A DNA stretch of 64,000 bases from a virus (taxonomy: Duplodnaviria > Caudoviricetes), in the IMG/VR virus record IMGVR_UViG_3300010352_001405, positions 32,001 through 96,000 of that record. One strand, given 5' to 3'. Below are positions 109 to 63,777 of the stretch, one piece after another (positions within the stretch are counted from its first letter, which is position 1; every line of letters starts with the position of its first letter). The notes below the pieces were generated by a model. The model saw nothing but the letters and a program-made list of their open reading frames with translations, was not told where the DNA came from and did no database searches. The translations under genes were made by a program, and so were the position numbers.

Positions 109-753
109 TTAAGAATTTTTTTTCAAAACACTTAACCATTTTTGATCTATTCTGTTCCAATATTCATGTCCCTCTGGTGTACTCCACCAATATATATAAT
201 CTATAAATCTTCTTGGTTTGATGTTATTTAAAATTTTCTCAAAATTATCATCGTTGATTTCTTTTCTGAATTGATCATATACATTATCAATATATCTTTT
301 ATAAATTTTATTGTCTACTAAAAATTTTTTGAACAAAGCATACGGGTCTAATTCATCCCAATTTTCTTCACCGTAAGGATCTATATCTTCATTTTTTTCG
401 TATATTCTGTTAATTTTTTTCAATTTAATCATCCATTTCACGTTCAATTTGGTCCAATAACTACCACCTTGATTAGTATTTTTCCAATAGAAAGCACCTC
501 TTATAAACTGTGTTGGATTTGCTTGCGTTAAATATTCATCTATATCGTTCCACCCGTTTGTTTTTAAATTATCTTTGTAATTTTCGAGTGATTTATGTTT
601 AGTTAGGAAATCTTTAAATTTATTTTCTATATCATCATCATCCCAATTTTCTTCACCGTAAGGATCTACATCAGAATGTTTATTAATTCTTTTTTTTCTA
701 AAAGGATTCCAATTGAAATCTTCGTTATATGTTTCAAAATTTATAATAATCAT
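109..753 (-). CDS. Hypothetical protein, two internally repeated domains each preceded by a DPYGEENW tag
   Basis: 214-aa ORF; DPYGEENWD occurs twice, each followed by a similar FK.FL...W..T..G..YW...KW domain. Confidence 0.8.
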   Translation of the reverse strand: MIIINFETYNEDFNWNPFRKKRINKHSDVDPYGEENWDDDDIENKFKDFLTKHKSLENYKDNLKTNGWNDIDEYLTQANPTQFIRGAFYWKNTNQGGSYWTKLNVKWMIKLKKINRIYEKNEDIDPYGEENWDELDPYALFKKFLVDNKIYKRYIDNVYDQFRKEINDDNFEKILNNIKPRRFIDYIYWWSTPEGHEYWNRIDQKWLSVLKKNS

Positions 754-754
754 T

Positions 755-1588
755 TTATTTCCAGTATGGTAAGTTTTCCCAATATTTTTTGTCCAATTTA
801 GTTAATGGTTTTTCTTTTTTATTTTTATCACCAAAATTAATTGGTTTCACTTTATCTCCTTCTCTTGCCAGAACTCTATATTTATGTTTTCCTTTTCCTA
901 TGAATCTTTTTGGATAATTGAAATTTGGATATATTTCGTTTCTATATTTAACATTAGTTGGATTTATTTCAACATCTTTTAGTTTTCCTTCGGTGATTAT
1001 ATTTTCACCGGATTTGATTTTCTTAGAAAACTTATTCCATATTAATTTAATAATATTTTTTGTTGTCATGGTGATAATACCGGCACTTATACTCATACCA
1101 CAACCAATTATTTCATCCATTGACATTAATTGATTATGTATAATATCATTTATGGCTAACATAAATGGTGCTAATATCGCAGTATATGAAAATGTATCAG
1201 TTAGAAACTCGATGGAATTAAATTTCATAAGAAATTCATATATGTTTTTAAAAGATTTAATTGATTTTATGAAATAATTTATAATATCAGATAAATTATT
1301 TTCTTTAATATATTTTTTAAGTTCTTCTGTCTGAGTATCTTTAAAAACAACACAAAATGCTGATATAATACTCAATATGATAGTTTCTTCTGTTATTGGA
1401 GCATTAAAATTTTGATTTTTTATTATATGATTTGCTATTGGTATGTAGGCTGCGATAGCTGTTCCAAATGTCATGACGAAAATTATATTTAAGTTAAATT
1501 CTTTGGCCAAATTTTTTATTAATTCGTTATTTTTCTTTATCAAAAAATCCTCATTAATAAAATTATCATATTTTAGCACATTATTCAT
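755..1588 (-). CDS. Hypothetical membrane protein with leader motif
   Basis: 277-aa ORF, several hydrophobic segments, N-terminus LKYDNFINE. Confidence 0.7.
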   Translation of the reverse strand: MNNVLKYDNFINEDFLIKKNNELIKNLAKEFNLNIIFVMTFGTAIAAYIPIANHIIKNQNFNAPITEETIILSIISAFCVVFKDTQTEELKKYIKENNLSDIINYFIKSIKSFKNIYEFLMKFNSIEFLTDTFSYTAILAPFMLAINDIIHNQLMSMDEIIGCGMSISAGIITMTTKNIIKLIWNKFSKKIKSGENIITEGKLKDVEINPTNVKYRNEIYPNFNYPKRFIGKGKHKYRVLAREGDKVKPINFGDKNKKEKPLTKLDKKYWENLPYWK

Positions 1589-1589
1589 A

Positions 1590-2273
1590 TTAATTATTTA
1601 TTTTATCGTCATCTTCAACTATATTATCTAAATAATTTGTTAAGAAATTTTCAACATTATAACAATTAAATTTTTTAGATGTAACAATCAAATTTCTAAT
1701 TTTATTTATAAAATACTCGTCTTTAATAATATAATTGGGTAGGGGTTTAATCATTTTTTCAAAATCTTGAATCGCACTAGTTTCTTGATTTTTTGTCATT
1801 CTTTGAATCATAACTTTACACATGATATCTAATAGATGTTTTAGTTTATCGAATTTCAAAGATTCATTATTCATTATGTAATCTTGTTCAATGTCGTTTA
1901 TATTATCTTTGGCATTGAAATTTATTTTAACATATTTGATATATTTATTAACAATATCTTTAGCACATTGTTGTGTATCTTTACAACTATCGACCATATG
2001 TTTTATTTCTTGGGATTTATTGTTGCCCAGTCTGAAGAATGATTCAGCTACTTTTTCTATATCGCTATCTTCAGCATTTTTATTTTTCTTTAGAATGATG
2101 GGTTTTAAAATAATTTTCATGTGTTCTTGAACTTCTTGAAATTTATTTTCTTTTTTTGCGTATTCTAGATTATTAGTAACATCATCATCACCAAGACCAA
2201 CACTTTGTTTATTCATAGGCCATTCTTGAGTATACGTTCCATTATACTCAAAAAATTTCATTATTCTTCCCAT
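1590..2273 (-). CDS. Hypothetical protein
   Basis: 227-aa ORF tightly packed with its neighbours. Confidence 0.7.
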   Translation of the reverse strand: MGRIMKFFEYNGTYTQEWPMNKQSVGLGDDDVTNNLEYAKKENKFQEVQEHMKIILKPIILKKNKNAEDSDIEKVAESFFRLGNNKSQEIKHMVDSCKDTQQCAKDIVNKYIKYVKINFNAKDNINDIEQDYIMNNESLKFDKLKHLLDIMCKVMIQRMTKNQETSAIQDFEKMIKPLPNYIIKDEYFINKIRNLIVTSKKFNCYNVENFLTNYLDNIVEDDDKINN

Positions 2274-2320
2274 TATTTATATTATTGTTTTTATTATATA
2301 TATAAAAAATAATTTTAAAT

Positions 2321-2332
2321 TTTTAATATATA
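2321..2332 (+). promoter_or_regulatory. Putative phage late-type promoter motif TTTTAATATATA
   Basis: Same or near-identical motif lies within about 40 nt upstream of starts at 2321(+), 5965(-), 8151(+), 12300(-), 16568(-), 34210(+), 44999(-), 45032(+), 49331(-) and 61218(+); analogous to the T4 late TATAAATA; AT-rich background is a caveat. Confidence 0.55.
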
Positions 2333-2352
2333 TAAAAAAATATAGCATTATT

Positions 2353-2967
2353 ATGATAAAGAAATTTAATTTGTTCGAAGAAATTTTTATTAGGCCAAAA
2401 GAAATTGATCCAACAAAACCTAGTATATTATATATCAATGGATCTAGACCATTGCTCAAAGAAGATGGTTCTTTAAATGTAAATAGAAGAAGTCAACTTA
2501 TTTATAATAGATTATCGCAATTTGGAGATAATGTTATCTATCCTTCTGTTTATTGGAAAGGTGGTGAAATGATATTTGATGAGATGATTGAAATTGTTGA
2601 AAATAACAATATTAAAGCGATTGTTGGTAATTCAGCCGGGGGTTATGTATCATTTTATTTATCTAATGGATATAATATTCCGTCTATGTCTATAAATCCA
2701 GCGATGGCATCTACAAGTGAAGCTCCCACATTACAGTCAGTTCCGTCTAATATTAAAAATAGTCCATTGAATTCAAAACAATTGATCGTTATTGGTGATA
2801 AAGATACTAAGGCTGATAGGGGAGTAGATGGTTCTTTGGTTATGAAAGATTTGAAAAATATGGGTTTTGGCGGTGAAATTCTAATTTTAGAAAACACTTA
2901 TCATAGATTAAGTAACGAACAATTTGATGAAACTTTTAAATATTTTTATAAAAAATATATAAGATAA
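2353..2967 (+). CDS. Alpha/beta hydrolase (YqiA/YcfP-like esterase)
   Basis: Nucleophile elbow GNSAGG, INPA motif, downstream D (GDKD) and H (TYHRL). Confidence 0.75.
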   Translation: MIKKFNLFEEIFIRPKEIDPTKPSILYINGSRPLLKEDGSLNVNRRSQLIYNRLSQFGDNVIYPSVYWKGGEMIFDEMIEIVENNNIKAIVGNSAGGYVSFYLSNGYNIPSMSINPAMASTSEAPTLQSVPSNIKNSPLNSKQLIVIGDKDTKADRGVDGSLVMKDLKNMGFGGEILILENTYHRLSNEQFDETFKYFYKKYIR

Positions 2968-2968
2968 T

Positions 2969-3313
2969 ATGGAAAAGACTTTCAATGGATTTCTTAATAT
3001 AAAAAATTCGGATAATGTATTTATAAAAGAGTCAAATTATCCAAGAAGGAATATTTCAGAAGGAGATATGATCGTTGTTACTAAAAAAGGAAAATATTTC
3101 AATCAAACAGGAGTCGTTATATACGTATATGATGAAAATGATAGATCAATATTAGTAAATGATATTGATGTTAAATTAGATTATATCGATAAAGAAATTC
3201 CATTTCAATTCTATGATGTTGAAAAATTAGATGTGATTAAAAGAAATACAGATGTGGACCCTTATGGTGAAGAAGATTGGAGAGAATCACCGTACGAAAA
3301 ATATATAATATAA
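2969..3313 (+). CDS. KOW/SH3-like small protein with DPYGEEDW tag
   Basis: EGDMIVVTKKGKYFNQTGVV KOW-like pattern; DVDPYGEEDW near the C-terminus. Confidence 0.7.
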   Translation: MEKTFNGFLNIKNSDNVFIKESNYPRRNISEGDMIVVTKKGKYFNQTGVVIYVYDENDRSILVNDIDVKLDYIDKEIPFQFYDVEKLDVIKRNTDVDPYGEEDWRESPYEKYII

Positions 3314-4436: not shown

Positions 4437-4498
4437 ATTTAATTGTTCAAATATTCTAAAATTCTTTATCATTTTATATTTTTAAATCTTTTATTTTT
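4437..4498. repeat. Direct repeat (about 62 bp, 2 mismatches) flanking the LRR gene; second copy at 5125-5186
   Basis: atttaattgttcaaatatt(c/t)taaaattctttatcattttatattttta(a/t)atcttttattttt at both positions. Confidence 0.85.
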
Positions 4499-5160
4499 AA
4501 TGATTTTAAATAATTTTTATATTCTTGGGTGAATCTATTATTAGAACATTTTAAATATCTTAAATTCGTTAAACTTTCAATCCCTTCTAAATTGGTTAAT
4601 TGATTATTAAAACAAATTAATTGTCTTAAATTCGTTAAATTTTCAATTCCGTATAGATCTGTTAATTGATTATTATAGCAATATAACACTTTTAAATCCG
4701 TTAAATGTTCAATTCCTTCTAAACCGATTAATCGATTATGATAACAATGTAAATAACTTAAATTAGTTAATTGTTCAATTCCTTCTAAACTAGTTAATTG
4801 ATTATTAGAACAATGTAAATATCTTAAATTAGTTAAATGTTCAATTCCTTCTAAACTAGTTAATCGATTATAAGAACAATATAATTCTCTTAAATTCGTT
4901 AAATGTTCAATACCATTTAAATTAGTTAATTGATTATTAGAACAATATAATATCTCTAAATTCGTTAAATATTCAATTCCTTCTAAACTAGTTAATCCTT
5001 TATTACAACAATCTAAATATGTTATTTTATCTAATGGTATATTTTGTTTTTTAGCGATAGTTATTATCGGAGTATCATTATCATCGTTCCAGTCTTCTTC
5101 ACCATAAGGATCAATATCTGATATATTTAATTGTTCAAATATTTTAAAATTCTTTATCAT
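4474..5160 (-). CDS. Leucine-rich repeat protein (22-aa internalin/SDS22-like repeats) with leader and DPYGEEDW tag
   Basis: About 8 repeats of L..L.CSNNQLTSLEGIE.LTNL; 66-bp periodicity in the DNA. Confidence 0.9.
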   Translation of the reverse strand: MIKNFKIFEQLNISDIDPYGEEDWNDDNDTPIITIAKKQNIPLDKITYLDCCNKGLTSLEGIEYLTNLEILYCSNNQLTNLNGIEHLTNLRELYCSYNRLTSLEGIEHLTNLRYLHCSNNQLTSLEGIEQLTNLSYLHCYHNRLIGLEGIEHLTDLKVLYCYNNQLTDLYGIENLTNLRQLICFNNQLTNLEGIESLTNLRYLKCSNNRFTQEYKNYLKSLKIKDLKI

Positions 5161-5185: not shown

Positions 5186-5563
5186 TTAATCATCCCAATT
5201 TTCTTCACCGTAAGGATCGTATTCCATGTGTTTCAATCTGATCAATTCCATTTTTTCTTTATATTTTCTATATTCATCTTCATCTTCATCATATGGGATT
5301 AATAATTCTTCAAAAATCCAATACCGCGAAATTTTAGCAATTCGGCAATTTTTAAAATCAACTTGATACATTGTTCCTCTTTTCATGATGCGATTTAATT
5401 CACCTATACCACCAGTTAAATTCATACCAATAATAGTTCCATCCCATCCATTCACATCAAACTGATCTTGTCTTCCTTTTTTACAAATCACTCTATCACC
5501 TATATTAAATGAATGATCTTTACTATTTTCTTCTATTTTAATAAATTTATTATAAGTTTTCAT
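5186..5563 (-). CDS. SH3/KOW-like small protein with C-terminal DPYGEENWDD
   Basis: FNIGDRVIC motif; N-terminus MKTYNKFIKIEE. Confidence 0.75.
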   Translation of the reverse strand: MKTYNKFIKIEENSKDHSFNIGDRVICKKGRQDQFDVNGWDGTIIGMNLTGGIGELNRIMKRGTMYQVDFKNCRIAKISRYWIFEELLIPYDEDEDEYRKYKEKMELIRLKHMEYDPYGEENWDD

Positions 5564-5566: not shown

Positions 5567-5959
5567 TTAATCTTCCCATTCTTCTTCACCATAAGGATCT
5601 AAATCTTTATCATATTCTTTTATTTTACGTGGTTCTTTCAAATAAGTAATTACTGTCGAACTAGGATCTACTTCAAATATACTCATTATTTCTTCGTTTT
5701 TATTTTTTATTACAAAAAGTATAGAAAAATAATGATCGAATTGTGTAATTACTTCAATTTTAACAACTAATCCCTTTATTTTATTCTTTGTTTGAAATTG
5801 TTCAAATTCACATAAATTATTTAAAAATAATTTTTTTAATTTTTTTTCAAAACCATTTGTATCGAAATATTCATCATATGAAAAAGAACAACCAATATCA
5901 TTTAATGAATAAATTTCAACAATATTTTCATTTTCAAATAATTTAAATTTTGTTATCAT
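5567..5959 (-). CDS. Hypothetical protein with C-terminal DPYGEEEWED
   Basis: 130-aa ORF, N-terminus MITKFKLFE. Confidence 0.75.
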   Translation of the reverse strand: MITKFKLFENENIVEIYSLNDIGCSFSYDEYFDTNGFEKKLKKLFLNNLCEFEQFQTKNKIKGLVVKIEVITQFDHYFSILFVIKNKNEEIMSIFEVDPSSTVITYLKEPRKIKEYDKDLDPYGEEEWED

Positions 5960-8180: not shown

Positions 8181-8882
8181 ATGAGAATATCATCACAAAA
8201 TAATCAATTTATTTTTCAACTACCGGTAGATTTCATTTCTCCTTATTTATATGAAAAGTTTCAAATATTTCTGGATAATAATAGAATGCCATATGATAAT
8301 GTTTTAGACTATATTAACTCGACAATTAAAGAATTAGTATTTCCAAGTGTTTCATATGAGAATGTTACTCAAAGATTATATGGTGGTAAAACCGTAGATT
8401 ATAAATCAGCGAAAAATATATTTGATACTTTTCAACACGATTTAGATATAACTTTTAAGAGCGTGGATTCGCACACAAATTTTTTCATGATGCAAGAAAT
8501 ATTAGATGAATTTTATTTGAATACTCGAAAACCATACGTACCATATTTCACATTATCGATTCTGGATAAAAATGGTGATCTTATTTATACTGTTATTTTT
8601 AAAAATATTTTATTGAAATCACAAGGTGAAATTAGATTACAATATCAGAAACAGGATTTCGGGGAGAACACATTTAGTTTGACATTTTCATATAACTTTT
8701 TAGACATCCTTTGGGAAATTAGAAATCTTCCAACAGATTCACCGATTAGTGTTTTTGATCTCCCATTGGGGAATGGATACTGGGAAAAAAGAGATCGCGG
8801 TGAGAAGGATATTAGAGATAATCCTTTAAATAAAGAAAGAAGAACACCGAAAATATATCCTGACGAAATGTCGGAATATTAA
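8181..8882 (+). CDS. Tail tube-like (gp19/gp54/gp3-fold) structural protein
   Basis: Pattern ELVFPSVS...LDITF...LSILDKNG...IFKNI...FSLTFSY typical of tube-fold proteins; late-type motif upstream. Confidence 0.5.
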   Translation: MRISSQNNQFIFQLPVDFISPYLYEKFQIFLDNNRMPYDNVLDYINSTIKELVFPSVSYENVTQRLYGGKTVDYKSAKNIFDTFQHDLDITFKSVDSHTNFFMMQEILDEFYLNTRKPYVPYFTLSILDKNGDLIYTVIFKNILLKSQGEIRLQYQKQDFGENTFSLTFSYNFLDILWEIRNLPTDSPISVFDLPLGNGYWEKRDRGEKDIRDNPLNKERRTPKIYPDEMSEY

Positions 8883-8938
8883 TTTTTTTTAAACTTATAA
8901 TTTTTTTATAAATATAACCTCTATCAAACTAAAAAAAT

Positions 8939-10108
8939 ATGATAGACAATAACACTATTGAAGCTGAAGTCGAAGTACCATTCGACGTATTATTTGAAAA
9001 ACTAAAAAACGAAAACAAAGTTTTCAAATTAAAAAACAAAAATTTTAAATCTTCCTTAAACGAAGACTATTTAAAATTCATCGACAAATTAGAATCATCT
9101 AATAATAAATTTAAAGAGATCGAAGAAGGTGAAGTAGTCAACGGTAAAATTATTAAAATTGATGATAGAGAATTAATCATTGATATCAATTTTAAAGATA
9201 ATGTATACGTGGAAACACGTTCTATTGACCAAAGCGTTTTAGAAAATCTAAACGTGGGTGATAATTTAGAAGTTCTAATAGTAAAAGTTAGCGATGACCC
9301 ATATTTTATACGTGGTTCAATAACCGAATTACTTAGAATGAATATATCAAATGTAGTTAAGGAACATTATAATGAAAATAATTTCTTGATGGCTAACGTT
9401 TTGGAATCTCAACCGGCTGGATATATATTAGATCTAGAAGTGGATGGACAAATCGCCGATGCTTTTATGCCAAATACTCTAGCTGGTGTAAATAAACTTC
9501 ATGATCCTAGTTTATTGGTGGGTAAGAAAATAGAGGTTATGATAGAAACGCTAGAACAAGACAAAGGTATTTATGTCGTAAGTCGTAAAAAATATTTAGA
9601 AACTTTGATTCCTGAAAGAGTTAAACAATTAAGAAAGGAATGGAACAAAGATAAAACTAAAATTTACGAAGGACATATAACTGGAACAACTCCTTTTGGT
9701 GCTTTTGTTGAATTCTGTGATTATTTAACTGGAATGATCCATAGATATAACGTGAATAAAGAATGGCAATCAGATGAGAAATGGACTAGTCTGAAACCTG
9801 GAATGTACGTCAATTTTTATATTAAAGATATTATTATCAAGAAAAATAAAGTCATTCTAACACAGATTCTAAGAGAATCTCTTTGGGATAATATTAAAAT
9901 AGACGATGTTATAAATGGTAAAGTTATAATGATTAAACCATTTGGTGCACTTATTCAATTAGATGATGAAACCAACGGATTAATTCAGAACACTTATCTT
10001 CAAAAAAATAAGATCGATTTAAAAGTCGGCCAAGATGTTGAAGTGAAAGTGACTAGTATAATGAAAGACGAAAGAAAAATAAATCTATCATTAATTGGAA
10101 TTATGTAA
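8939..10108 (+). CDS. rpsA: Ribosomal protein S1-like protein (about four S1 OB domains)
   Basis: EEGEVVNGKIIKI, YVVSRK, GHITGTTPFGAFVEF..LTGMIH, GKVIMIKPFGALIQL...GQDVEVKV...RKINLSL. Confidence 0.85.
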   Translation: MIDNNTIEAEVEVPFDVLFEKLKNENKVFKLKNKNFKSSLNEDYLKFIDKLESSNNKFKEIEEGEVVNGKIIKIDDRELIIDINFKDNVYVETRSIDQSVLENLNVGDNLEVLIVKVSDDPYFIRGSITELLRMNISNVVKEHYNENNFLMANVLESQPAGYILDLEVDGQIADAFMPNTLAGVNKLHDPSLLVGKKIEVMIETLEQDKGIYVVSRKKYLETLIPERVKQLRKEWNKDKTKIYEGHITGTTPFGAFVEFCDYLTGMIHRYNVNKEWQSDEKWTSLKPGMYVNFYIKDIIIKKNKVILTQILRESLWDNIKIDDVINGKVIMIKPFGALIQLDDETNGLIQNTYLQKNKIDLKVGQDVEVKVTSIMKDERKINLSLIGIM

Positions 10109-11707: not shown

Positions 11708-12037
11708 TTATATATCATAATATCTTTGATTATAATGAACAGGAACAATGTTCCTTAGATTGGGAGGTGGTGTTTTTTTAAATTCACTACAATCTTTTTT
11801 CTCCCATTTACCTCTACCAGTTTCAGACATTATATACATTTTATCATCGCCCACATCTACAATTTCATATGATTTTCCTTTTTTAAAAACATGAGTTGGT
11901 GGGTAATATCCAACAGTATAATCAACTTGACAGATTAAATAATCACCAATTTTATAATCTTCATCCCATTCTTCTTCGTCATATGGATCTATATTTTTGT
12001 GTTTATTTTCAAATACTTTATATTCTCATATTTTCAT
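11708..12037 (-). pseudogene. Tagged small protein gene with in-frame TGA at codon 4 (not in the ORF track)
   Basis: MKI*EYKVFENKHKNIDPYDEEEWDEDYKIGDYLIC...; otherwise open over 110 codons. Confidence 0.65.
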
Positions 12038-12294
12038 TTTCCCAATTTTCTTCACCATATGGATCATCGGGTGTAAAAATTCTAATTGGATCTTTTTTTA
12101 TTTTTTGTAACCACATTCTATCATATATCATTTTAAAACCATTATCAAATTCAACTTCTACTGTATACCCCAAATGATACTTTTGAATATTTAAAATATA
12201 ATTCAGAATCAAAATAGCATAAATTAGTAACATCGTCTCCAACTTTAATTTTATTTCCGTTCATATCTAAACAAGAATCTACATTTTTTATCAT
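12018..12294 (-). pseudogene. DPYGEENW-tagged small protein, apparently frameshifted
   Basis: ATG at 12294 after a late-type motif gives MIKNVDSCLDMNGNKIKVGDDV...; a different frame gives LGYTVEVEFDNG...DPYGEENW; span is 3n+1. Confidence 0.55.
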
Positions 12295-12454: not shown

Positions 12455-15400
12455 ATGGTTAAAAATAATTCAGATAAATATCAAAAACTTACACATAAAG
12501 AACATGTCTTATTAAGACCCAATATGTATGTTGGGTCAGTTGTGAATGAAACAAAATCACTTTTTGTCGTAGATGATCCAAAATATTTAAATTCTTTTAA
12601 AATTACTAATAAAACAGTTAGTTATAATGGTGGATTTTTAAAAATATTCGACGAAATACTTGTTAACGCATCAGATCATTCGATAAGAACTGATAAAGTA
12701 AAATATATCAAGGTCGATGTTACAAAAGATTCAATTTCTGTAGAAAATGATGGACCTGGAATACCCATAGAAATGCATAATAAAGAAAAATGTTATATTC
12801 CAGAATTAATTTTTGGGCATCTTTTAACAGGATCCAATTTTGATAAAAATGAAGATAAATATTGGGGTGGGTTGCATGGGTTAGGCGCCAAGTTAACTAA
12901 TATCTTTTCTAAAAAATTCATCATAGAAACGTGCGATGGAAAAAAACATTATACTCAAATTTTTGAGAACAATTTAAATAAGATAAATAAACCAAAAATA
13001 AAATCATCGAAGAAACAATATACAAAAATAACTTATTATCCCGATTTTACACGTTTTGATTTAGTTGGTATAGATGAAGATATTGAATCAATTTTCATAA
13101 AAAGATGTATTGATGTTTCTGTATATTGTAGCAAAGTTAAAGTATATTACAACGGAAACCTTATACCAACAAAAAGCTTCAAATCATATATGGAAATGTT
13201 CGTTAGTGACCAAGAGACATTTTACGAAAAAATAAATGATTTTTGGGAAATTGGTGTTAGTAAATCATTAGACAATTCGTTTGATCAAATATCTATGGTA
13301 AATGCTATTTCTACTTATAATGGCGGAACTCACGTTAATGCCATAACTAATCAGATAACAAAAAGGATACAAGAATCATTATTAAAAAAGAACAAAAAAT
13401 TAAACATTAAACAAAACGATATAAAAAATCGATTATTTGTTTTCGTTAATCTTAAAGTGGCTAATCCAGTATTTGATACGCAATCAAAAGAAAATCTTAT
13501 AAGTAAAATAAATGCTCCTGATGTATCAGATATTTTAATAAAAAAAATAACATCATCATCGATGATAGATGAACTTCTTAAATTTTTAATGATTAAAGAA
13601 GAACATGATACCAAAAAAGAAATAGGTAAACATAAAATAAAAATTAGTAAACTAGAGGACGCACGAAAGGCTGGTACATCTGAAAGCAAATCTTGTTTAA
13701 TTTTTATTTCAGAGGGGGACTCAGCTTCAAGTTCAGTTATGGCTGGTATTTCAGGATCAGACAATCCTGAATATTATGGAGTTTTTCCAATCCGTGGAAA
13801 AATTTTAAACGTAAGAGATGAAGATCTATCAAAAATAAGAAATAATGAAGAAGTAAAAAATATTATAAATATATTAGGATTAGAATATGGAAAACAATAT
13901 ACAGATACATCTAAATTAAGATACGGGAAAATTGTTTTAACTGCCGACGCCGATTGTGATGGGAACCATATCAGAGGACTTATAATAAATCTCTTTGACA
14001 CATATTGGCCCGAATTACTTAGAATGGACTTTATATATGATTTTATAACGCCGATAGTCAAAGCTACGAAAGGAAATAATATCAAATATTATTATAGTTT
14101 GAAAGATTATCAAAAAAATAAAGAAAATCTTTCAGGATATGAAATTAAATGGATAAAAGGTCTTGGGACAATAGAACCGCACGAAATGAAAAATTTTTTC
14201 AAAAACATAAATAAACATCTCATAAGATTTCATGATACACCAAAATCAGATACTAAAAACATGATAGATCTTGTTTTTAATAAAAAAAGATCAGATGATA
14301 GAAAAGAATGGTTAAAGAATTATAAACCAATAGAATACATCGATAAATTTACAACCAATCAAACATACGATAAATTCATTAATAACGAATTAATGGAATG
14401 GAGTATGGAAACATCTAATAGAATGATACCCAATATCATGGATGGCTTAAAACCAGGTCAAAGAAAAGTTATTTATACTATGTATAAAAAGAATATGAAA
14501 ACTGATATTAAGGTTAGTTCTTTATCTGGAGCCGTAATTCAAGAATCAGCTTACCACCATGGTAATGTATCAATCGAGGGGACTATAATTGGAATGGCAC
14601 AAGATTTTGTTGGTTCAAATAATTTGAACTTAATTCTTCCAAAAGGACAATTTGGTTCAAGATTAAAGGGGGGTAAAGATTCTGCTAGTGCCAGATATAT
14701 ATTTACTAAGCTTAATGATATAACTTCAAATATTTTGAAAAAAGAAGATAATGATATTTTAGAATATCAGAATGATGATGGATTTCCAATTGAACCAACT
14801 TACTATGTCCCTGTTATACCTATGATTCTTGTGAACGGAGGGTCTGGTATAGGTTCGGCTTATTCAACTGATATACCAAGTTTTAGTCCACTTGAAATAA
14901 TAACATATTTGCAGAATAAAATTAAAGGAAAAAAGAACATTGAATTAATACCATACTATAAAGAATTTAAGGGGACCATAGAATTAGATATTGAAAATAA
15001 AAGATATATAACAAGAGGTATTCTTAATAGGGTAAATGATATAACTTATGAGATAAAAGAATTACCACTTTGGATGTGGAATGATTCATACTATGAATTT
15101 TTAGATGATTTATCAGAAGATAAAAAAGAACCTAAGACTCAAAAGTTAATAAGAAAAGCTTACATAAGAGATTGGGTAAAGAGTGGTAATGATAAAGACA
15201 TCCATATTAAAATCTATTTCTATAAAGATGTACCTAAAGAGTTCTTTCATAATATTTGGAAGAATTTAAAAATGGAAAGTTATATATCTTTTAATAATAT
15301 GTATTTATGGGACGAGAATAAAAAAATTAAAAAGTATTCAAACCAATACGAAATAATAGATGATTTCTATAAAATAAGATTAGAATATTATACAAAAAGA

Positions 15401-15736
15401 AAAAATCATCAAATAGAAGAACTGAAAAAAGATATAAAAATTGTTCAAAATAGAATGAAATTTTTGAAAAACGTTATCGATGGCAATCTCATCATTTACA
15501 AAAAAACCAGAGATATAGTAGAGAAGGATTTAGATAAATTAGCTTTTGATAAAGTAGATAATTCATATGGATATTTGTTGAATATGTCTATTATGTCTTT
15601 CACTAAAGATAGATTACAAGAATTAAAAGAAGAACTTGATAATACTAAATTGAAATTAAAAGAATTGGTAGAAACGAGCGAAGAAACTATTTGGTTAAAA
15701 GAACTATCAGAGTTAAAATCTAAATTAAAATTTTAA
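12455..15736 (+). CDS. Type IIA DNA topoisomerase, single polypeptide (GHKL ATPase, TOPRIM and breakage-reunion domains)
   Basis: HVLLRPNMYVGS, EILVNASD, GGLHGLGAK, EGDSA, PIRGKILN, DADCDG, KGLG, DGLKPGQRK, YHHG, SARY catalytic Tyr. Confidence 0.95.
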   Translation: MVKNNSDKYQKLTHKEHVLLRPNMYVGSVVNETKSLFVVDDPKYLNSFKITNKTVSYNGGFLKIFDEILVNASDHSIRTDKVKYIKVDVTKDSISVENDGPGIPIEMHNKEKCYIPELIFGHLLTGSNFDKNEDKYWGGLHGLGAKLTNIFSKKFIIETCDGKKHYTQIFENNLNKINKPKIKSSKKQYTKITYYPDFTRFDLVGIDEDIESIFIKRCIDVSVYCSKVKVYYNGNLIPTKSFKSYMEMFVSDQETFYEKINDFWEIGVSKSLDNSFDQISMVNAISTYNGGTHVNAITNQITKRIQESLLKKNKKLNIKQNDIKNRLFVFVNLKVANPVFDTQSKENLISKINAPDVSDILIKKITSSSMIDELLKFLMIKEEHDTKKEIGKHKIKISKLEDARKAGTSESKSCLIFISEGDSASSSVMAGISGSDNPEYYGVFPIRGKILNVRDEDLSKIRNNEEVKNIINILGLEYGKQYTDTSKLRYGKIVLTADADCDGNHIRGLIINLFDTYWPELLRMDFIYDFITPIVKATKGNNIKYYYSLKDYQKNKENLSGYEIKWIKGLGTIEPHEMKNFFKNINKHLIRFHDTPKSDTKNMIDLVFNKKRSDDRKEWLKNYKPIEYIDKFTTNQTYDKFINNELMEWSMETSNRMIPNIMDGLKPGQRKVIYTMYKKNMKTDIKVSSLSGAVIQESAYHHGNVSIEGTIIGMAQDFVGSNNLNLILPKGQFGSRLKGGKDSASARYIFTKLNDITSNILKKEDNDILEYQNDDGFPIEPTYYVPVIPMILVNGGSGIGSAYSTDIPSFSPLEIITYLQNKIKGKKNIELIPYYKEFKGTIELDIENKRYITRGILNRVNDITYEIKELPLWMWNDSYYEFLDDLSEDKKEPKTQKLIRKAYIRDWVKSGNDKDIHIKIYFYKDVPKEFFHNIWKNLKMESYISFNNMYLWDENKKIKKYSNQYEIIDDFYKIRLEYYTKRKNHQIEELKKDIKIVQNRMKFLKNVIDGNLIIYKKTRDIVEKDLDKLAFDKVDNSYGYLLNMSIMSFTKDRLQELKEELDNTKLKLKELVETSEETIWLKELSELKSKLKF

Positions 15737-43254: not shown

Positions 43255-43300
43255 TAAATTAATTTTTATTTTATTTAAAACCAAAAGGGCTCCGCTTCTT

Positions 43301-44977
43301 TTATCCTGCACCACCACCACCAACTGTATCAACGTTTATGTAAGATCTAGCATCACTCGGTTGTGATTGATCTTGAGATACTCCGACCGTAGAATTAATA
43401 CCAGATGCCGTTGAATTATTGCTAGGTTCAGTCCCCCCATTCAACGAATTAATAGAATAAACTCTTTTATAACCATTATTAAACATTTTTTCCAATTCAC
43501 TCCTGCCTAAAGGTCTTCCTAATTCACAATCTATTTTAACGTCAATTCTGGCTGACATATCATTAAATCCTAAATCGTCACTCATTTTCACATCTACATT
43601 CTTAACAACTATATTTCCAATATTTATAATTGGGGAATACGGATTTCCTATAGTTAGATGCCATGGCGTAGTGTTTATACCGCACATTAAAGCTATTGAA
43701 CCTTTTAATGGCCATCTGAATTTAAAAACTGTACCAGCCAATAAAGTAGTAGAAATATTGTTTATGGCATCTCCAACACTTGCACTCGGGTCCGGCATTT
43801 TAAATCCTCCCGCTAATTTAGATTTCCCATCATTGTCAGTACCCCCTTTTTGTTTTCCATTAGTGTCAGCTTTAACTCCACCGCCTAAATCGTTCACAAA
43901 TTGGGTAACACCTTGAACAAAAGCATCTACCATGGCCTTTAAAAAATTAACAAAATTGTCTTTGCCATCAGAAGAAGATCCATTTACTGCACCGATTAAT
44001 TTTTGAAGAGCAGGACTATTGCCCAACATAAATCTTTGTTCTGATGTTCCCATTTTAAATAAATTACTGAGTATATCTAACATAGCCATACCAGGATCTA
44101 TTCCATTGATATATTTTTGTTCATATGATGTTTCTAAATTTAAATTTAAAGTTGATGATAAAGATTGTTGACCGCTAGTGTCTCTCATTTTTGCTGTTCT
44201 TAATACGTTTGGATCACCAGTCGGCACAAATGTCGCACTATAGTCATCAGTTAATCCCATAGCATTTAACATTCCCCATAATAGACCTTGAGACCAACCA
44301 GGAACGCTCATTATATTTTCGGCTCCTTTTATACCCATGTCCTTTAATATATTATTAATCACTTTATCTAATGTTTCTGTTTGATCTGTCCACACTTCAT
44401 TAAAACTAAAACTCAATAATTCTGAATCATCTTTTGGTTTTATCCAACCAATAACAGTAGATATCGGTTCGACTGCTTTTCCCCATGCTAATAAATTATT
44501 AGGTACTATTGCATTATCTGAAAATCTTCTAAGTATCCATAGTCTATTTATTGGATATACACCCAAATCCTTCAAATAAGCGAAATCGCCTGCTTTCAAT
44601 TTTAAAGCTTTTGTTTGTTGTGTAGTAAAATAATTTATTAAAGAAATATATGGATCCTCATTAGAATCATCGAACATATATACGTTATTCTTTAAATAAT
44701 TTATTATTTCTACAGTCCCTGATGTTTTTGGATTTTTATAAACCAAAATTGCACTTTCAGTGGCTGGATCTGTTTTATCTGTATTTTGTCCACTTTTAAC
44801 AAATTGACTTCCTTTTAAATCTAAATTAGTTGTATTTTTTTTTCTTGGTTTTATTTTTGATATTCTATTATAAATATCACCTTTGTTCATATCTCCGAGA
44901 CTACCATCCTCTTTAACGTTTCTATTATTGAAATTTTCCAAACCCGGGCTAAAAATAAATCCAATTTCTGAATGCAC
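43301..44977 (-). CDS. Putative baseplate/tube-initiator structural protein
   Basis: 558 aa, first gene of the baseplate operon; PWHLTIGNP...IGN...LGFND. Confidence 0.5.
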   Translation of the reverse strand: MHSEIGFIFSPGLENFNNRNVKEDGSLGDMNKGDIYNRISKIKPRKKNTTNLDLKGSQFVKSGQNTDKTDPATESAILVYKNPKTSGTVEIINYLKNNVYMFDDSNEDPYISLINYFTTQQTKALKLKAGDFAYLKDLGVYPINRLWILRRFSDNAIVPNNLLAWGKAVEPISTVIGWIKPKDDSELLSFSFNEVWTDQTETLDKVINNILKDMGIKGAENIMSVPGWSQGLLWGMLNAMGLTDDYSATFVPTGDPNVLRTAKMRDTSGQQSLSSTLNLNLETSYEQKYINGIDPGMAMLDILSNLFKMGTSEQRFMLGNSPALQKLIGAVNGSSSDGKDNFVNFLKAMVDAFVQGVTQFVNDLGGGVKADTNGKQKGGTDNDGKSKLAGGFKMPDPSASVGDAINNISTTLLAGTVFKFRWPLKGSIALMCGINTTPWHLTIGNPYSPIINIGNIVVKNVDVKMSDDLGFNDMSARIDVKIDCELGRPLGRSELEKMFNNGYKRVYSINSLNGGTEPSNNSTASGINSTVGVSQDQSQPSDARSYINVDTVGGGGAG

Positions 44978-45048: not shown

Positions 45049-45570
45049 ATGATAAAAATATTTGAAAATTTTTTTAATGATATTATTGATTTAGATTTTG
45101 GTGATATTGTCACATATAGAGGAATAAGGAAGCATCATAAAAGAGATGAAAAAGCAATGGTAATGGGCATAAAGTATGATGAAAAAAACGGTCATGCTTA
45201 TTATAGAATTGAATTTTCGGACGGCGGTCAAAAAATATGTAGAGAACAACTTATACAAAAAAGAATTAAAAAAACATATGATGATATAAGGTTCGAATCC
45301 AAAATGAAAAAGAAACCGAGCTATTTATATTACAAAAATATAAATGATGAAACTGGAGGATTTTTATTCGTCAAAGAAAAACAGAAAAAGGAAATAGCTA
45401 GAAAAGAGAAAAAAAGAAAAGAAAGAGAAAAAAAGAGAGAAGAAATTAGATTAAAAATGTTAGATATAGATCCATATGGTGAAGAAGATTGGGGAATGGA
45501 TGATTATGATCCTGAATTAGATGGGCCTAGATGGATGATGAATTGGAGATTAAATTATCATTTGGATTAA
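45049..45570 (+). CDS. SH3-like protein with leader and DPYGEEDW tag
   Basis: MIKIFENF, FGDIVTY, charged helix, then DIDPYGEEDW. Confidence 0.75.
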   Translation: MIKIFENFFNDIIDLDFGDIVTYRGIRKHHKRDEKAMVMGIKYDEKNGHAYYRIEFSDGGQKICREQLIQKRIKKTYDDIRFESKMKKKPSYLYYKNINDETGGFLFVKEKQKKEIARKEKKRKEREKKREEIRLKMLDIDPYGEEDWGMDDYDPELDGPRWMMNWRLNYHLD

Positions 45571-52391: not shown

Positions 52392-52418
52392 AAAAGAGAT
52401 GTTTAAAACCTCTCTTTT
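52391..52418. terminator. Hairpin between convergent genes
   Basis: aaaagaga...tctctttt. Confidence 0.5.
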
Positions 52419-53245
52419 TAGTATTTATTAAATTGTTCTATTTTACTAGCATCTATAAATTTTAATAAATCTATAAATCCGCAATAAATAAAAACTTCTT
52501 TTTCTTTTTCGTTTAATTTTGAATATATTTCCCCGGAAATTAAATCATAAATCACTTTATTTGATAATTTATCATATGGGGTTTTTATAAATTTATTTTT
52601 AAATAAATAAAATTTTAATTGATTAAGTCTGGCATATATTTCAGTTGGTTCACTTAAATATTTTATATATGATGTATCTTTTATAGCTGGAATATTCCAA
52701 TCATTACCTGTTATTTTTCTTATGATATATTCTTGTTTTTCTGGTGAATTTGTAAAATTAAATAATTTTACAAAATTTTCTTTGTTATTTGACATATCAT
52801 ATACTACGTGCATTAATTCATGATACATATTATCGGCGTTTGCTAGAGGATCCAATATCATAATATTATGATTAATTATAGCTGCCATTGTTTGAGTATT
52901 AGATATTTCTCTATCTATTGATCTAAAAAGATTATTACAAAATTCGTCGTTTTTTTTATAAAAAACTATTACGGAATCTAATTTTTTAATTATTTCATTT
53001 TTGTTATTTATCCAAGGATCATTAGATACTTTTCTTTTTGCTTCTTCTAGAACTCTTTTATATACGTAATTGTCATTGGCGATATTCAATGTTTTGGCAT
53101 AATTTTGAAAATAATTCATATCATATCTTTTTGGATTATCTCCTTTAATACTATTGAAAATTAAAGCAATATTTAACGCTAAAGTGGCAGCTTTATTCAG
53201 TGTCCCTTCATTTAAATTATTATAATCTTCAAAATTTTTTATCAT
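52418..53245 (-). CDS. Putative zincin metallopeptidase with leader motif
   Basis: HELMH plus downstream EPTEIYAR; N-terminus MIKNFEDYNNLNE. Confidence 0.65.
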   Translation of the reverse strand: MIKNFEDYNNLNEGTLNKAATLALNIALIFNSIKGDNPKRYDMNYFQNYAKTLNIANDNYVYKRVLEEAKRKVSNDPWINNKNEIIKKLDSVIVFYKKNDEFCNNLFRSIDREISNTQTMAAIINHNIMILDPLANADNMYHELMHVVYDMSNNKENFVKLFNFTNSPEKQEYIIRKITGNDWNIPAIKDTSYIKYLSEPTEIYARLNQLKFYLFKNKFIKTPYDKLSNKVIYDLISGEIYSKLNEKEKEVFIYCGFIDLLKFIDASKIEQFNKY

Positions 53246-60805: not shown

Positions 60806-60853
60806 ATATTGTAAAACGATAGAATTTATTAGATCACAGTGACAATACCAAAC

Positions 60854-61204: not shown

Positions 61205-61255
61205 GTTTTCTTTTTTTTTTTAATATATACAATAAAAAAAAAGAAAATACAGATT

Positions 61256-61633: not shown

Positions 61634-61649
61634 ATAAAAAAATTTTCAT

Positions 61650-61689
61650 CGTAAAAAAAACCTACCCGATGAGTAGGTTTTTTTTACGA
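61650..61689. terminator. Bidirectional terminator; second hairpin at about 61711-61728
   Basis: cgtaaaaaaaacctac-loop-gtaggttttttttacg between convergent genes. Confidence 0.75.
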
Positions 61690-61736
61690 TCAAGACAAGA
61701 GTTCCAGAAAAACCCTCTTCCGAGGGGTGAAAAAAT

Positions 61737-62750
61737 TTATTTATCATCATCAAAATCGAAAAAATCATCGATTGATTCGTCTTCGATGACATCGTTTGAT
61801 GGAAGTTTAGTACTAGCCTTTTTAATTGAATCTTCAGCGTAATTAAATGGTTTGTTACCATTAAGTAACTGGATGATTTTATCAACATTACTTCTTTTTT
61901 CATCAGACCATCCTTCCATAGATGGAGCGTGATCTTCCAAATTAACATTAGCTGGTCGAGATGTAACAACTTCTTTAATTTTATTTTGCCATTTTTTATC
62001 TACAATAGAAAATTTACCGTTTTCTTCAACAACAGGAGGTGTAATAAATTTATTAGTTTTATCATTCCAAATTTTAATTGGAGAATTTGTTAAGAATTGA
62101 CTGGTATCATAATTTGGCATTTCAACTGTTCCTCTACCGTCGGGTGATGGAGTTTTTACCAATTTTATAATCAATCTAAAATCTTTTCCATTCACGAAAT
62201 CGAAAATGTTACATTTTTCTCCAACATCTCCATTAATCTCAGCATTAATTTTCTGTTTAATCTTTGGACCATAAGGATAAACTAAAATTTTACCGACCAA
62301 TTCAGGATGTTGTTCATCTTCAATAATCATCACATAAGAATAAAATTTAGTACTTCTTTTTATTCTCTTTGAATTTTCAACATCTGCTTGATTATTAGAT
62401 TTGTAAAGTTTCCAAAAAGTTGCACATAAAGGACATGGTGTTTGTTGTGAAATATTCTTTTCACAATCATAATATCCAGCTAATTCAGGATAATCTTTAA
62501 AATCTGCATAATGTACATGTTTTTGAATAGCTGCTGGGCCTGTTCCCGAACCATCACGGTTAACATTTCTAATAAATCTAATAGTTGATCTGTAACCAAC
62601 GCCCTTTGGATCTGCTGCGTCTTCTAATTTTGGACGATATATACCGTCTTGGTTTTTGCTTTCTTTATTTAAAAAAGCCAATTCTTCATTTTGAACTTCA
62701 TCATTCGATTCAAATAAGAAATTTTCATCTTTGTCTTTGTATTCTGCCAT
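61737..62750 (-). CDS. Single-stranded DNA-binding protein (T4 gp32-like)
   Basis: IRF, H...C..CPLC Zn site, GKILVYPYG.KI..KI, GKDF, NYDTSQF, acidic tail DDFFDFDDDK. Confidence 0.88.
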   Translation of the reverse strand: MAEYKDKDENFLFESNDEVQNEELAFLNKESKNQDGIYRPKLEDAADPKGVGYRSTIRFIRNVNRDGSGTGPAAIQKHVHYADFKDYPELAGYYDCEKNISQQTPCPLCATFWKLYKSNNQADVENSKRIKRSTKFYSYVMIIEDEQHPELVGKILVYPYGPKIKQKINAEINGDVGEKCNIFDFVNGKDFRLIIKLVKTPSPDGRGTVEMPNYDTSQFLTNSPIKIWNDKTNKFITPPVVEENGKFSIVDKKWQNKIKEVVTSRPANVNLEDHAPSMEGWSDEKRSNVDKIIQLLNGNKPFNYAEDSIKKASTKLPSNDVIEDESIDDFFDFDDDK

Positions 62751-62890
62751 AAAGCCTACGATTTTTTTTTGATGATAGCTATTGCCGTCATTTTCATTTA
62801 ATTGCCTAAAAAGCCTTTTAATATATAATATATATTATTAATTAAAAATAGTTTTAAAAAATAACATATTTAATTATATTAAAATTTAAT

Positions 62891-63208
62891 TTATATTTTC
62901 AATCCTTCATTCATCATTAATTGTTTAAAATTTTCTATTTTTTCATTATCATCAATTTCTTCATATGATACTTTCAATATAGCATTAAATAATCTTTTAA
63001 TATATTCTTCTTTTGTTAATTCTTTTTGACCGTCAATTCCGTCAAAATTATTTAAAATTTTAATATAAAATTCATCGAATGATAATCTATCATTATAATT
63101 TTCATTTAAAGATTTAATAAGAATATTAAAATCTTGATATAATTTTTTATATAATTCAAAATCATCTACTATATTTTCACTTAATATTTCCCTGATTGTT
63201 TTGTTCAT
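62891..63208 (-). CDS. Hypothetical protein
   Basis: 105-aa ORF coupled to the upstream stop. Confidence 0.6.
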   Translation of the reverse strand: MNKTIREILSENIVDDFELYKKLYQDFNILIKSLNENYNDRLSFDEFYIKILNNFDGIDGQKELTKEEYIKRLFNAILKVSYEEIDDNEKIENFKQLMMNEGLKI

Positions 63209-63777
63209 TAATTTTCACTCCAATCTTCTTCGCCATATGGATCCATTTCACTGTATACTCTTTTAATTTCTTTCTTTTTTGAAATTGATGAACAATCTTG
63301 TCCAACAGATCCTCGTATACCGTAATTACCGTGTATTCCACTTGTACCGTCAGATCCTCGTATACCGTAATTACCGTGTATTCCACTTGTACCGTAATTA
63401 CCATGAAAACCATAATATGATTCTTTACCTAATTGTTCAGCTATATATTCTGAATATTGTATAGATTTATCTAATTTCTCAGCTATATATTCTGAAAAAT
63501 TAATAGATTCGTTCAATGTATTTGCAATATAATTTGCATATTGAATAGAGTTATTTAATTTTTTTTTAACATCATCATCATTTTTAAATCCATATGTTAA
63601 ACCAGAATATTTAACATCATATAATGGACTAACACCTAATTTTTTATTTGGTGTAACACTTAATGTTTTAGACCGATAAACTTTTTGTTTTATTATTGGA
63701 GATTCTTCCAATAATCTTTGTTTTTCTAATTTTTTTTGATATCTTTTATTAAAAAAATTCACTATAAAATTAACCAT
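63208..63777 (-). CDS. Protein with SEYIAE repeats, a Gly-X-Y stretch and C-terminal DPYGEEDW tag
   Basis: SIQYANYIAN, SINFSEYIAE, SIQYSEYIAE; 13 Gly-X-Y triplets. Confidence 0.75.
   Translation of the reverse strand: MVNFIVNFFNKRYQKKLEKQRLLEESPIIKQKVYRSKTLSVTPNKKLGVSPLYDVKYSGLTYGFKNDDDVKKKLNNSIQYANYIANTLNESINFSEYIAEKLDKSIQYSEYIAEQLGKESYYGFHGNYGTSGIHGNYGIRGSDGTSGIHGNYGIRGSVGQDCSSISKKKEIKRVYSEMDPYGEEDWSEN
63306..63395. repeat. Perfect 45-bp tandem duplication
   Basis: cagatcctcgtataccgtaattaccgtgtattccacttgtaccgt twice. Confidence 0.9.

Follow-up and report, generated by a model that had tools for sequence, protein, structure and literature searches.

The 64,000-nucleotide stretch of DNA analysed here (hereafter, the window) comprises bases 32001-96000 of a 163,324-bp viral contig from IMG/VR (IMGVR_UViG_3300010352_001405; 25.6% GC, 23% completeness by CheckV), and it encodes a recurrent acidic peptide, DPYGEExW (the tag), which is carried by about one in nine of the proteins of the contig. 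The tag is a short linear motif under selection at the peptide level. Taken together, the data point to a portable label that would be read by one clade-specific partner and that is placed on proteins linked to the prohead, a reading to which we give a probability of about 0.45. The tagged proteins would mostly pass through the prohead, either as head cargo or as ejection proteins, and a single partner restricted to the clade would read the tag as a handle. The tag is present in no family library, and our literature search found no paper on it as a phage motif, in agreement with the original prediction, which was made from the sequence of the window and did not recognize the peptide as a described motif.

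In huge phages, the functions of hundreds of small proteins are unknown, and a label shared by one protein in nine would group these proteins into one pathway and offer a practical handle with which to pull down, track, or load them. New in the present analysis are the placement of the label dialects on the tree of head genes, the recognition of a leader peptide resembling the capsid-targeting sequence (CTS) of phage T4 as a partner signal, a statistical link between the tag and copies of virion-protein pieces, and a named candidate enzyme with a sequence-level precedent for its substrate tail.

Conservation, carriers, and distribution of the tag

A six-frame search of the window with the regular expression DPY.EE.W matched exactly the ten sites in nine genes listed by the original prediction and no others. 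All ten copies lie in frame within open reading frames (ORFs), one of which (109-753) carries two copies. The whole contig contains 30 copies in 29 genes, and tagged genes account for ~27 of its ~238 genes (crude gene call). In this gene set, 28 copies are present compared with 2.7e-4 expected analytically from the amino-acid composition, and no copy was obtained in 100 DNA shuffles or in 200 within-protein shuffles. The GroEL of the contig is 78.7% identical to that of LR756501 ('maha'), a 735-kb uncultured phage, the next nearest GroEL sequences being those of Bacteroides phages (58%). LR756501 carries 105 copies in 90 ORFs, where the reversed pattern used as a control gave none, and the 243-kb relative G013 carries 47 copies; no copy was found in Bacteroides phage SJC03. 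For the contig, with ~0.0003 copies expected, chance does not account for the 30 present.

The carriers are largely unrelated to one another, as had been proposed: when the tag was masked, BLAST grouped the 29 tagged genes of the contig into 22 families, of which 20 are singletons, one is a pair, and one is an LRR family with seven members. Eight proteins of the window and 87 tagged proteins of LR756501 share no Pfam or PHROG family, and the matches obtained fall only on unrelated bodies (LRR, collagen, GNAT, and others), indicating that the tag is not part of a known Pfam or InterPro repeat. The LRR and collagen-like bodies predicted in the window were confirmed by Pfam, and the SH3/KOW-like body was confirmed as an SH3/Tudor-like barrel by a fold model of gene 5186-5563 (see below). 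The window genes for topoisomerase II, a Rad50-like protein, GroEL, and ribonucleotide reductase contain no copy, consistent with the predicted absence of the tag from core enzymes. At synonymous third positions, the identity between copies is 0.738, compared with 0.726 expected from the codon usage of the genome. Because synonymous sites agree no more than codon bias predicts, it is the peptide and not the DNA that is conserved, and the original prediction was right on this point. A DNA-level repeat or mobile element is ruled out by the same value and by the in-frame position of all copies.

The anatomy of the tag was determined in five genomes from 185 exact copies of DPYGEExW and 59 one-mismatch variants. 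The core is D-P-[YLF]-[GND]-E-E-x-W, with essentially no variation at D1, E5, and E6 and almost none at P2, and with W8 mostly retained; Y3 can also be L or F, and G4 can also be D, N, C, or S. The core is usually preceded by [DE]-[IVL], and many copies have [KR]-x-[VI]-[YF]-[ST]-x-x or a basic helix ending in R-L-K-H-M-D-I on the upstream side. One or two acidic residues follow, and a fuller form can be written as [KR]-x-[VI]-[YF]-[ST]-x-x-D-P-[YLF]-[GND]-E-E-x-W-[DE]-[DE]. Classified by position (n = 213), 72 tags are C-terminal, 48 are N-terminal, and 93 are internal. Exactly two residues follow W in 44 of the 72 C-terminal tags, N-terminal tags are preceded by a leader of 6-30 residues, and internal tags sit at domain joints. 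The predicted location near protein ends is better stated as a location on ends and linkers, with the tag being portable between unrelated proteins. It is present on ~8-13% of proteins, on flexible ends and inter-domain linkers, and the carriers are folded proteins of 55-1233 residues.

A modular arrangement of this kind is found in G013, in which a single ORF of 673 residues (77009-79030, -) consists of six beads, each composed of an SH3-like barrel, a basic helix (...RLKHMDI), and DPYGEExW. Window gene 5186-5563 corresponds to a single bead of this type. In its AlphaFold2 (AF2) model, built from a 17-sequence alignment, the barrel spans residues 24-90 (pLDDT 67-86) and the helix spans residues 95-111; the tag forms a coil after the helix and outside the barrel (pLDDT ~56), and the leader is disordered. 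Foldseek placed the barrel among PWWP, Tudor, SH3, and KOW-like folds. The SH3-like barrel was rejected as a reader of the tag, since AF2 places no tag on the barrel. A barrel-tag network was also discarded: sequence comparison recovered a small barrel family (11 hits) whose enrichment among tagged proteins is not clear. Comparison of the barrel family with the N-terminal part of the ligase described below gave no match.

The position of tags at domain joints of multi-domain proteins, after a basic helix, might also be expected of a self-contained linker or cap, formed by a D-P-Y-G turn and an acidic Trp, that has no reader, ends domains cleanly, and has been spread by cassette shuffling. DPxG is a common turn, and conserved gene ends could promote recombination, as proposed for the internal-protein genes of T-even phages. 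However, a passive linker would not hold D, E, E, and W near-invariant over some 240 copies, nor would it explain why C-terminal tags so sharply favour exactly two residues after W. Furthermore, DNA that is unconserved beyond codon bias would be a poor recombination site, and the replacement of the label across whole proteomes in sister lineages, described below, suggests a co-evolving partner. We regard a tag with no reader as highly improbable.

The original prediction described the motif as phage-wide. The short linear motif itself stands, and its range is better described as lineage-wide: at least 30 IMG/VR contigs of the LR756501 clade carry several copies each, and sister lineages having the head genes in common with this clade lack the motif. 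Among deposited phages (50,697 records), just LR756501 and LR756503 match. A search of prokaryotic genomes (one genome per species, 596 Gb) returned 13 single matches, nine inside ordinary folded enzymes and four on small phage-like contigs, and no cellular protein family with the tag was found in these 596 Gb. Mimicry of a host motif was rejected on the basis of these 13 matches, the nine within folded enzymes being chance matches. Three of these four contigs (CAJBPB010000064, CAIZXK010000309, and CAJAUM010000019), which are near-identical, 3.3 kb long, and each equipped with a typical C-terminal tag, are binned in lake Bacteroidetes/Bacteroidales metagenome-assembled genomes from one time series, which gives a weak hint as to the host group.

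These searches also bear on the possibility that the tag docks on a non-virion hub in the cytoplasm, such as a protease adaptor, the ribosome, RNA polymerase, or a phage protein, and thereby concentrates accessory proteins. Many tagged genes are small accessory genes located in hypervariable arrays, tagged enzymes (a CCA-adding enzyme, a tRNA methyltransferase, and a deaminase) act on tRNA and nucleotides, and changes of label between lineages would fit differing hosts. However, no cellular protein family uses the motif, so the tag does not mimic a host client, and the enrichment for the CTS-like leader and for virion pieces would be left unexplained. Docking on a cytoplasmic hub is, in our view, rather improbable.

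The tag is retained in orthologues with just 30-36% identity in their bodies. Untagged orthologues exist for the tagged proteins T03 (own contig, 8745-9737), T20 (102261-102677), and T25 (121285-122112), and in one of these three cases the tag arrives with an added N-terminal extension. The window provides an example of tag gain or loss: the protein encoded at 52418-53245 (-), with leader MIKNFEDYNNLNEG, is untagged, and its LR756501 homologue (733394-735103) is longer and tagged.

A sharper picture of the lineage boundary was obtained from the head protease, which has 385 relatives in IMG/VR. Tags are confined to contigs in which the protease shares 81% or more identity with that of LR756501. 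None of the 40 searched contigs with 63-73% protease identity has a tag, including contigs of 110-195 kb, and four sister contigs contain no exact and no one-mismatch copies. In G001 (IMGVR_UViG_3300020048_000026; 70% protease identity), 23 of 213 proteins end in ...[AKQ]-K-Y-N-L-COOH, always at the very end, and 22 of these 23 have an N-terminal leader. G015 (IMGVR_UViG_3300042261_001186), which lies inside the tag clade, uses DP[YLF]GEExW and writes the main tag as DPLGEExW; in addition, ~22 small tandem genes, in arrays at 80-81, 88-91, and 99-106 kb, end in E-E-[ND]-I-E-W-[LVF]-COOH, a label confined to this contig. The label is lineage-specific and the architecture (leader, variable body, and terminal label) is conserved, which is the pattern expected from a co-evolving reader. 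The rewritten labels (KKYNL and EE[ND]IEW[LVF]) represent a natural experiment by which the reader could be found through co-variation. Four LRR-type proteins of G013 also end in KYNL.

Leader peptides and indirect links to the prohead

Two forms of N-terminal leader were recognized, namely M-x-K-x-[YF]-x-x-[YF]-[IVL]-x-E and M-I-K-K-F-K-[IL]-F-E. In LR756501, 26 and 14 N-termini have the first and second forms, respectively, compared with 0.36 and 0.23 when residues 2-14 of each protein were shuffled. Leaders are present on 5-15% of proteins, are 40-70 times commoner than in shuffled N-termini, and are kept even in sister lineages without the tag. The T4 CTS, MKTYQEFIAE (PMC8442874), fits the first form, and both forms end in I/L-x-E, which is also repeated in the scaffold of the clade. 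In T4, all internal head proteins, which are diverse anti-defence proteins sharing only that peptide, reach the core via the CTS (PMC5694885; PMC3012670), and gp21 processes Alt at sites of the I/L-x-E type (ITE-6 and LTE-619; PMC5694885). The leader is also found on untagged proteins, e.g. that encoded at 2353-2967 (+), which begins with MIKKFNLFEE as tagged proteins do, and leader and tag are therefore separate signals. The two occur together 2.5-4 times more often than expected in five genomes: 14 observed versus 3.7 expected in the contig, 24 versus 8 in LR756501, 17 versus 5.7 in G013, 15 versus 5.6 in G015, and 5 versus 2 in G007.

The tagged proteins resemble the CTS-bearing proteins of T4 in that one short peptide is common to diverse, fast-evolving small proteins and that head genes of the gp20/gp21/gp23 type are present; it is the accompanying leader and not the tag, however, that matches the pattern of the CTS, with an I/L-x-E site of the protease type at its end. 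DPYGEExW is acidic and for the most part C-terminal or internal; its sequence is unrelated to that of the CTS, and the number of proteins that carry it is about tenfold higher. The cargo-loading peptides of encapsulins and the targeting tail at the C-terminus of the HK97 prohead protease are short terminal peptides that suffice as addresses for an HK97-fold shell and are movable between cargoes. The tag shares with them the character of a short movable terminal peptide, and a protease-like protein bears the phage tag as well, whereas the phage label varies among lineages with very similar capsid proteins. The tag resembles these address or handle peptides (the T4 CTS, the encapsulin and HK97 tails, and the LysW tail discussed below) and belongs to none of these classes.

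The portal, protease-scaffold, and capsid genes lie outside the contig of the window and were analysed in LR756501, where the head genes are T4-type: a portal gene (phrog_213, 1.7e-66), an S77-like protease-scaffold fusion (phrog_207, 4.9e-27), and a Gp23-like capsid gene (PF07068, 6.4e-24). The scaffold contains ~ten E-Y-I-A-E-N-x-D-x-x-I-x-Y repeats. Among the small tagged proteins of LR756501 are some that reproduce parts of virion proteins in diverged form (37-65% identity over 40-120 residues), namely residues 279-334 of the portal, the protease domain, the scaffold repeats, residues 77-157, 165-244, and 542-590 of the capsid protein, and residues 28-67 and 1174-1262 of the tail sheath, so that the copied sheath pieces include its N- and C-terminal ends. 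Among the LR756501 proteins of <500 residues, such pieces were found in 11 of 80 tagged proteins versus 24 of 867 untagged ones (Fisher p = 6e-5). A tagged paralogue of the protease in LR756501 has lost the catalytic His and Ser, and its tag region, R-V-Y-N-E-L-D-P-Y-G-E-E-N-W, aligns opposite F-R-I-Y-D-I-S-D-E-S-K-I-N-D-L-F at the protease-scaffold junction of the main protein; a diverged protease paralogue is also present in giant phages of the SPN3US group (PMC5694885).

Similar combinations are encoded by the contig itself. Gene 108058-108510 contains a capsid piece and a tag. In the window, ORF 63208-63777 (-; 189 aa) contains four 'YIAE' scaffold-type repeats (61-69% identical to the LR756501 protease-scaffold), a collagen-like G-x-y run, and a C-terminal tag, DPYGEEDW (63220-63243), followed by SEN and the stop codon; judging from its sequence, the product looks like an accessory scaffold or core component. 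The links to the leader and to virion pieces tie the tagged set indirectly to head assembly, and the T4-CTS-like leader and the virion-piece mimics lend indirect support to the capsid-related role that was among the options of the original prediction. Its degron, portal, and host-complex options received no specific support. In LR756501, dozens of small genes are diverged 40-200-residue pieces of its own portal, prohead protease, capsid, and sheath; examples of such genes are located at 15148-15435, 142020-143048, 276342-276932, 542326-542892, 552409-552918, and 553796-554218.

The same links would be expected if the tag were itself a packaging signal that docks on the inner face of the capsid, the scaffold, or the portal in the manner of the encapsulin and HK97-protease peptides, with the ligase described below being unrelated to it. 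An inactive copy of the prohead protease as well as scaffold-repeat and capsid pieces are tagged, the protease paralogue has its tag region opposite the protease-scaffold junction in the alignment, tag and CTS-like leader tend to occur together, and bead proteins with multiple tags would suit a lattice of many identical sites. However, the head genes are 63-86% identical across lineages that have wholly different labels or none, and because the labels differ while the head genes remain so similar, a conserved capsid site would be an odd reader. In addition, proteins bearing the leader would need no second signal, and sheath pieces and tRNA enzymes are tagged as well. We consider a packaging signal of this kind unlikely.

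Alternatively, the tag may be a processing site or degron that is cut by the head protease or another protease, e.g. to divide the six-bead protein into single tag-ended beads. The G-E-E of the tag fits the S/A/G-x-E sites of giant-phage prohead proteases, all of which cut after Glu (PMC5694885), single-bead and six-bead versions of one module exist, and C-terminal copies end two residues after W. The scaffold repeats (E-Y-I-A-E) and the leaders of this clade, however, imply a T4-type I/L-x-E specificity, which is absent from the tag; the eight conserved residues far exceed the needs of such proteases; and the trimming of four C-terminal residues would have no evident purpose. Cleavage at the tag accordingly seems very doubtful to us. 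If the label marks head cargo, as in the reading that we favour, it would list the proteins that are injected with the DNA by the largest known phages, including LRR binder arrays under diversifying selection and tRNA-repair enzymes.

A RimK/LysX-family ligase as a candidate partner

Genes that are present in G015, G013, and LR756501 and absent from four tag-free contigs were collected as a gene profile, which yielded 36 genes. Two adjacent genes stand out among them, one for an ATP-grasp ligase of the alpha-L-glutamate type and the other for a class II aminoacyl-tRNA-synthetase-like core. The ligase has 470-520 residues, and its C-terminal 180 residues form a RimK-type ATP-grasp domain (Pfam RimK, 9e-20; NCBIfam RimK family, 1.9e-26; NCBIfam LysX, 1e-16), with matches in the PDB to RimK (5zct and 4iwx, 1.5e-8) and ArgX (3vpb, 9e-5). 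It keeps the family motifs F-R-A-N-V-A-R-G-G and M-E-x-N, and its N-terminus, M-I-T-K-Y-S-K-Y-L-K-Q-N-E, is a leader. The product of the neighbouring gene is a 291-residue catalytic core with no anticodon domain. The gene pair is located at 86972-89503 (-) in LR756501, 41681-44159 (+) in G015, and 115016-118063 (+) in G013; the ligase gene itself spans 86972-88534 in LR756501 and 42747-44159 in G015, where the synthetase-like core is encoded at 41681-42556. Both genes were found in LR756501, G007, G012, G013, G014, and G015, and both are absent from all 40 contigs with 63-73% protease identity; the ligase is also absent from G001. Each of these 40 contigs had been anchored by its head protease gene, which in LR756501 is ~11 kb away from that of the ligase. 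In LR756501, G013, and G015, tagged genes directly follow the ligase gene, one of them with a phosphoribosyltransferase domain.

Enzymes of this family are described as acting on acidic protein ends. RimK polyglutamylates ribosomal protein S6, according to the account given in PMC11957791, and LysX and ArgX attach glutamate or aminoadipate to the C-terminal Glu of LysW and ArgW, which have the tail E-D-W-G-E (PMC10433800). The tail of the Natrinema carrier is A-P-E-L-E-E-D-W-G-E, and LysX recognizes the EDWGE tail (PMC10433800). The sequences APELEEDWGE-COOH and DPYGEEDWDD-COOH share P at position 2, E-E-D-W at positions 5-8, and an acidic residue at position 10, with Trp two residues before the C-terminus; the C-terminal form of the tag can accordingly be written as x-P-x-x-E-E-D-W-x-[DE]-COOH. 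Only the tag-bearing clade has a gene for a RimK/LysX-family ligase, and this gene adjoins tagged genes. RimK, for its part, acts on the Glu-Glu end of S6. The phage tail differs from those of LysW and ArgW in that it is present on ~90 proteins per genome and not on one carrier, two thirds of the tags are not C-terminal, and the terminal residue is not fixed. There are no lysine or arginine pathway genes beside the phage ligase, which also has an extra 290-residue N-terminal part bearing the leader.

In the reading that we favour, the ligase may dock on the tag and then add an amino acid to, or otherwise modify, carboxylates, either at the C-terminus or in the Glu-Glu pair of internal copies. 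From these sequence comparisons, the ligase is the leading candidate for a reader or writer of the tag, albeit one that we judge somewhat unlikely to be correct, and the modification-site option of the original prediction now has a candidate enzyme. ATP-grasp ligases can modify several internal acidic motifs per chain, as in three-core microviridin precursors (PMC5934393), so that internal tags are compatible with an enzyme of this superfamily. Graspetides such as microviridin likewise have a short, sometimes repeated acidic motif containing Tyr, Pro, Asp, Glu-Glu, and Trp/Tyr and are encoded with a RimK-like ATP-grasp enzyme (PMC5934393), and many tags have Ser/Thr and Lys/Arg just upstream. 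The tagged proteins differ from graspetides in being full-size folded carriers with no microviridin-type leader and another order of residues; moreover, the upstream Ser/Thr (position -3) is present in only about half of the tags, unlike the Thr/Ser/Lys nucleophiles that graspetide cores conserve at a fixed spacing from the acidic residues.

Several observations weigh against the involvement of the ligase or against the reading as a whole. The co-occurrence of tag and ligase is one clade-level event, with 35 other genes sharing the pattern in what is a crude profile, and the link may thus be plain shared ancestry. The ligase lacks the GSWGR loop of LysX (there is no G-[STA]-x-G motif of this type), the loop reading N-x-N-R-G-E-G-V instead. 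In addition, 141 of the 213 tags lie at N-termini or within the chain, positions that are closed to the classical action of a C-terminal ligase such as LysX or RimK, and C-terminal tags end in various residues (N, D, E, K, Y, or V), whereas Glu is obligatory at the end of LysW and S6. A 49%-identical homologue of the ligase sits in an 11-kb stretch without tags, and the ligase could act on host ribosomal protein S6 instead. Tagged sheath pieces and tRNA enzymes are not obvious head cargo. Finally, when promoter class was compared as a guide to timing, tagged genes of this contig were found to belong more often than other genes to units with the TTAATATATA promoter motif described below (22 of 27 versus 110 of 211), and this enrichment is not seen in LR756501.

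Independent replication of the ligase-tag link was sought and no independent lineage was found, the second acidic dialect being confined to one contig. G011 was tried as an in-clade control lacking both tag and ligase and was not clean: it consists mostly of structural genes and has the variant tag DPWCEENWD. A link to Nop10 and Cbf5 was also considered and rejected. With 43 C-terminal tags, the best profile hit in the PDB was the archaeal Nop10 linker R-F-S-P-E-D-P-Y-G-E-Y (E = 0.08), and no gene of the TruB_N/Cbf5 family was found in four phage genomes; given this E-value and the phages lacking Cbf5/TruB, the match was treated as convergence.

A more far-reaching version of the favoured reading would be a proteome-wide tagging chemistry, in which a packaged RimK/LysX-type ligase recognizes a LysW-like handle on about a tenth of the proteins and glutamylates or cross-links them via Glu-Glu or the C-terminus, thereby priming head-cargo effectors (LRR binders, tRNA-repair enzymes, and virion mimics) for loading, ejection, or activity in the next cell, with sister lineages having swapped both handle and enzyme. 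We think that this version is improbable. If the ligase does act on the label, the latter would be the first carrier-protein-type tail used across a whole viral proteome, and the ATP-grasp ligases that recur in large phages would gain a purpose.

Tagged genes and probable promoter motif of the window

Four of the window tags are C-terminal or nearly so in addition to that of ORF 63208-63777. ORF 2969-3313 (114 aa) has DPYGEEDW (3257-3280, +) near its C-terminus, with 10 residues after the tag. ORF 5186-5563 (125 aa), the single-bead gene, ends with DPYGEENW (5195-5218, -), DD, and the stop codon, and its product has, in order, leader MKTYNKFIKIEE, the SH3/Tudor-like barrel, the basic helix, and the tag. 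ORF 5567-5959 (130 aa), with leader MITKFKLFENEN, ends with DPYGEEEW (5576-5599, -), ED, and the stop codon; its LR756501 orthologue retains the tag at 32% body identity, and a deep alignment of this gene recovered just three relatives among 5.8 billion proteins. In ORF 12018-12233 (71 aa), DPYGEENW (12042-12065, -) is followed by seven residues after W.

The other tags lie at the N-terminal side or within the protein. ORF 109-753 (214 aa) has DPYGEENW at residue 30 (643-666, -) and again at residue 125 (358-381, -), the unit of the tag plus the following domain being duplicated within the protein. The LRR protein 4474-5160 (228 aa) has DPYGEEDW at residue 17 (5089-5112, -), immediately after leader MIKNFKIFEQLNISDI, and ORF 45049-45570 (173 aa), with leader MIKIFENFFNDI, has DPYGEEDW at residue 141 (45469-45492, +). 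The gene read from 12033 to 11709, just downstream of ORF 12018-12233, begins MKI*EYKVFENKHKNI-DPYDEEEW, with the tag at 11966-11989 (-) and a body with a 'GD.L/V' SH3-like signature. It has an in-frame TGA at codon 4 (ATG AAA ATA TGA GAA TAT...), and with this codon counted the tag starts at residue 17, the position that it has in all other leader-tag proteins. Elsewhere, TGA serves as a normal stop codon (20 of 123 long ORFs), and the gene is a pseudogene, a read-through case, or the product of a sequencing error. A programmed frameshift between genes 12018-12233 and 11709-12033 was rejected, there being no fitting slippery sequence.

Also encoded in the window are GroEL, a type II topoisomerase in fused form, a Rad50-like ATPase, a ribonucleotide reductase with an intein, and a baseplate spike that has a VanY domain. 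A strong motif, TTAATATATA (T-T-A-A-T-A-T-A-T-A), is located 10-40 nt before ~15-25% of genes (18-fold enriched) and is probably, to judge from its positions, a late or phage-specific promoter. It precedes the protease-scaffold-capsid and baseplate operons and was not found before the topoisomerase, Rad50, GroEL, or ribonucleotide reductase genes. Copies are located, for example, upstream of window positions 2969, 5959, 8098, 44977, and 45049 and, in LR756501, before 73913. The distance is 15 nt for tagged gene 2969-3313 and 13 nt for tagged gene 45049-45570, the latter of which adjoins the baseplate/spike operon.

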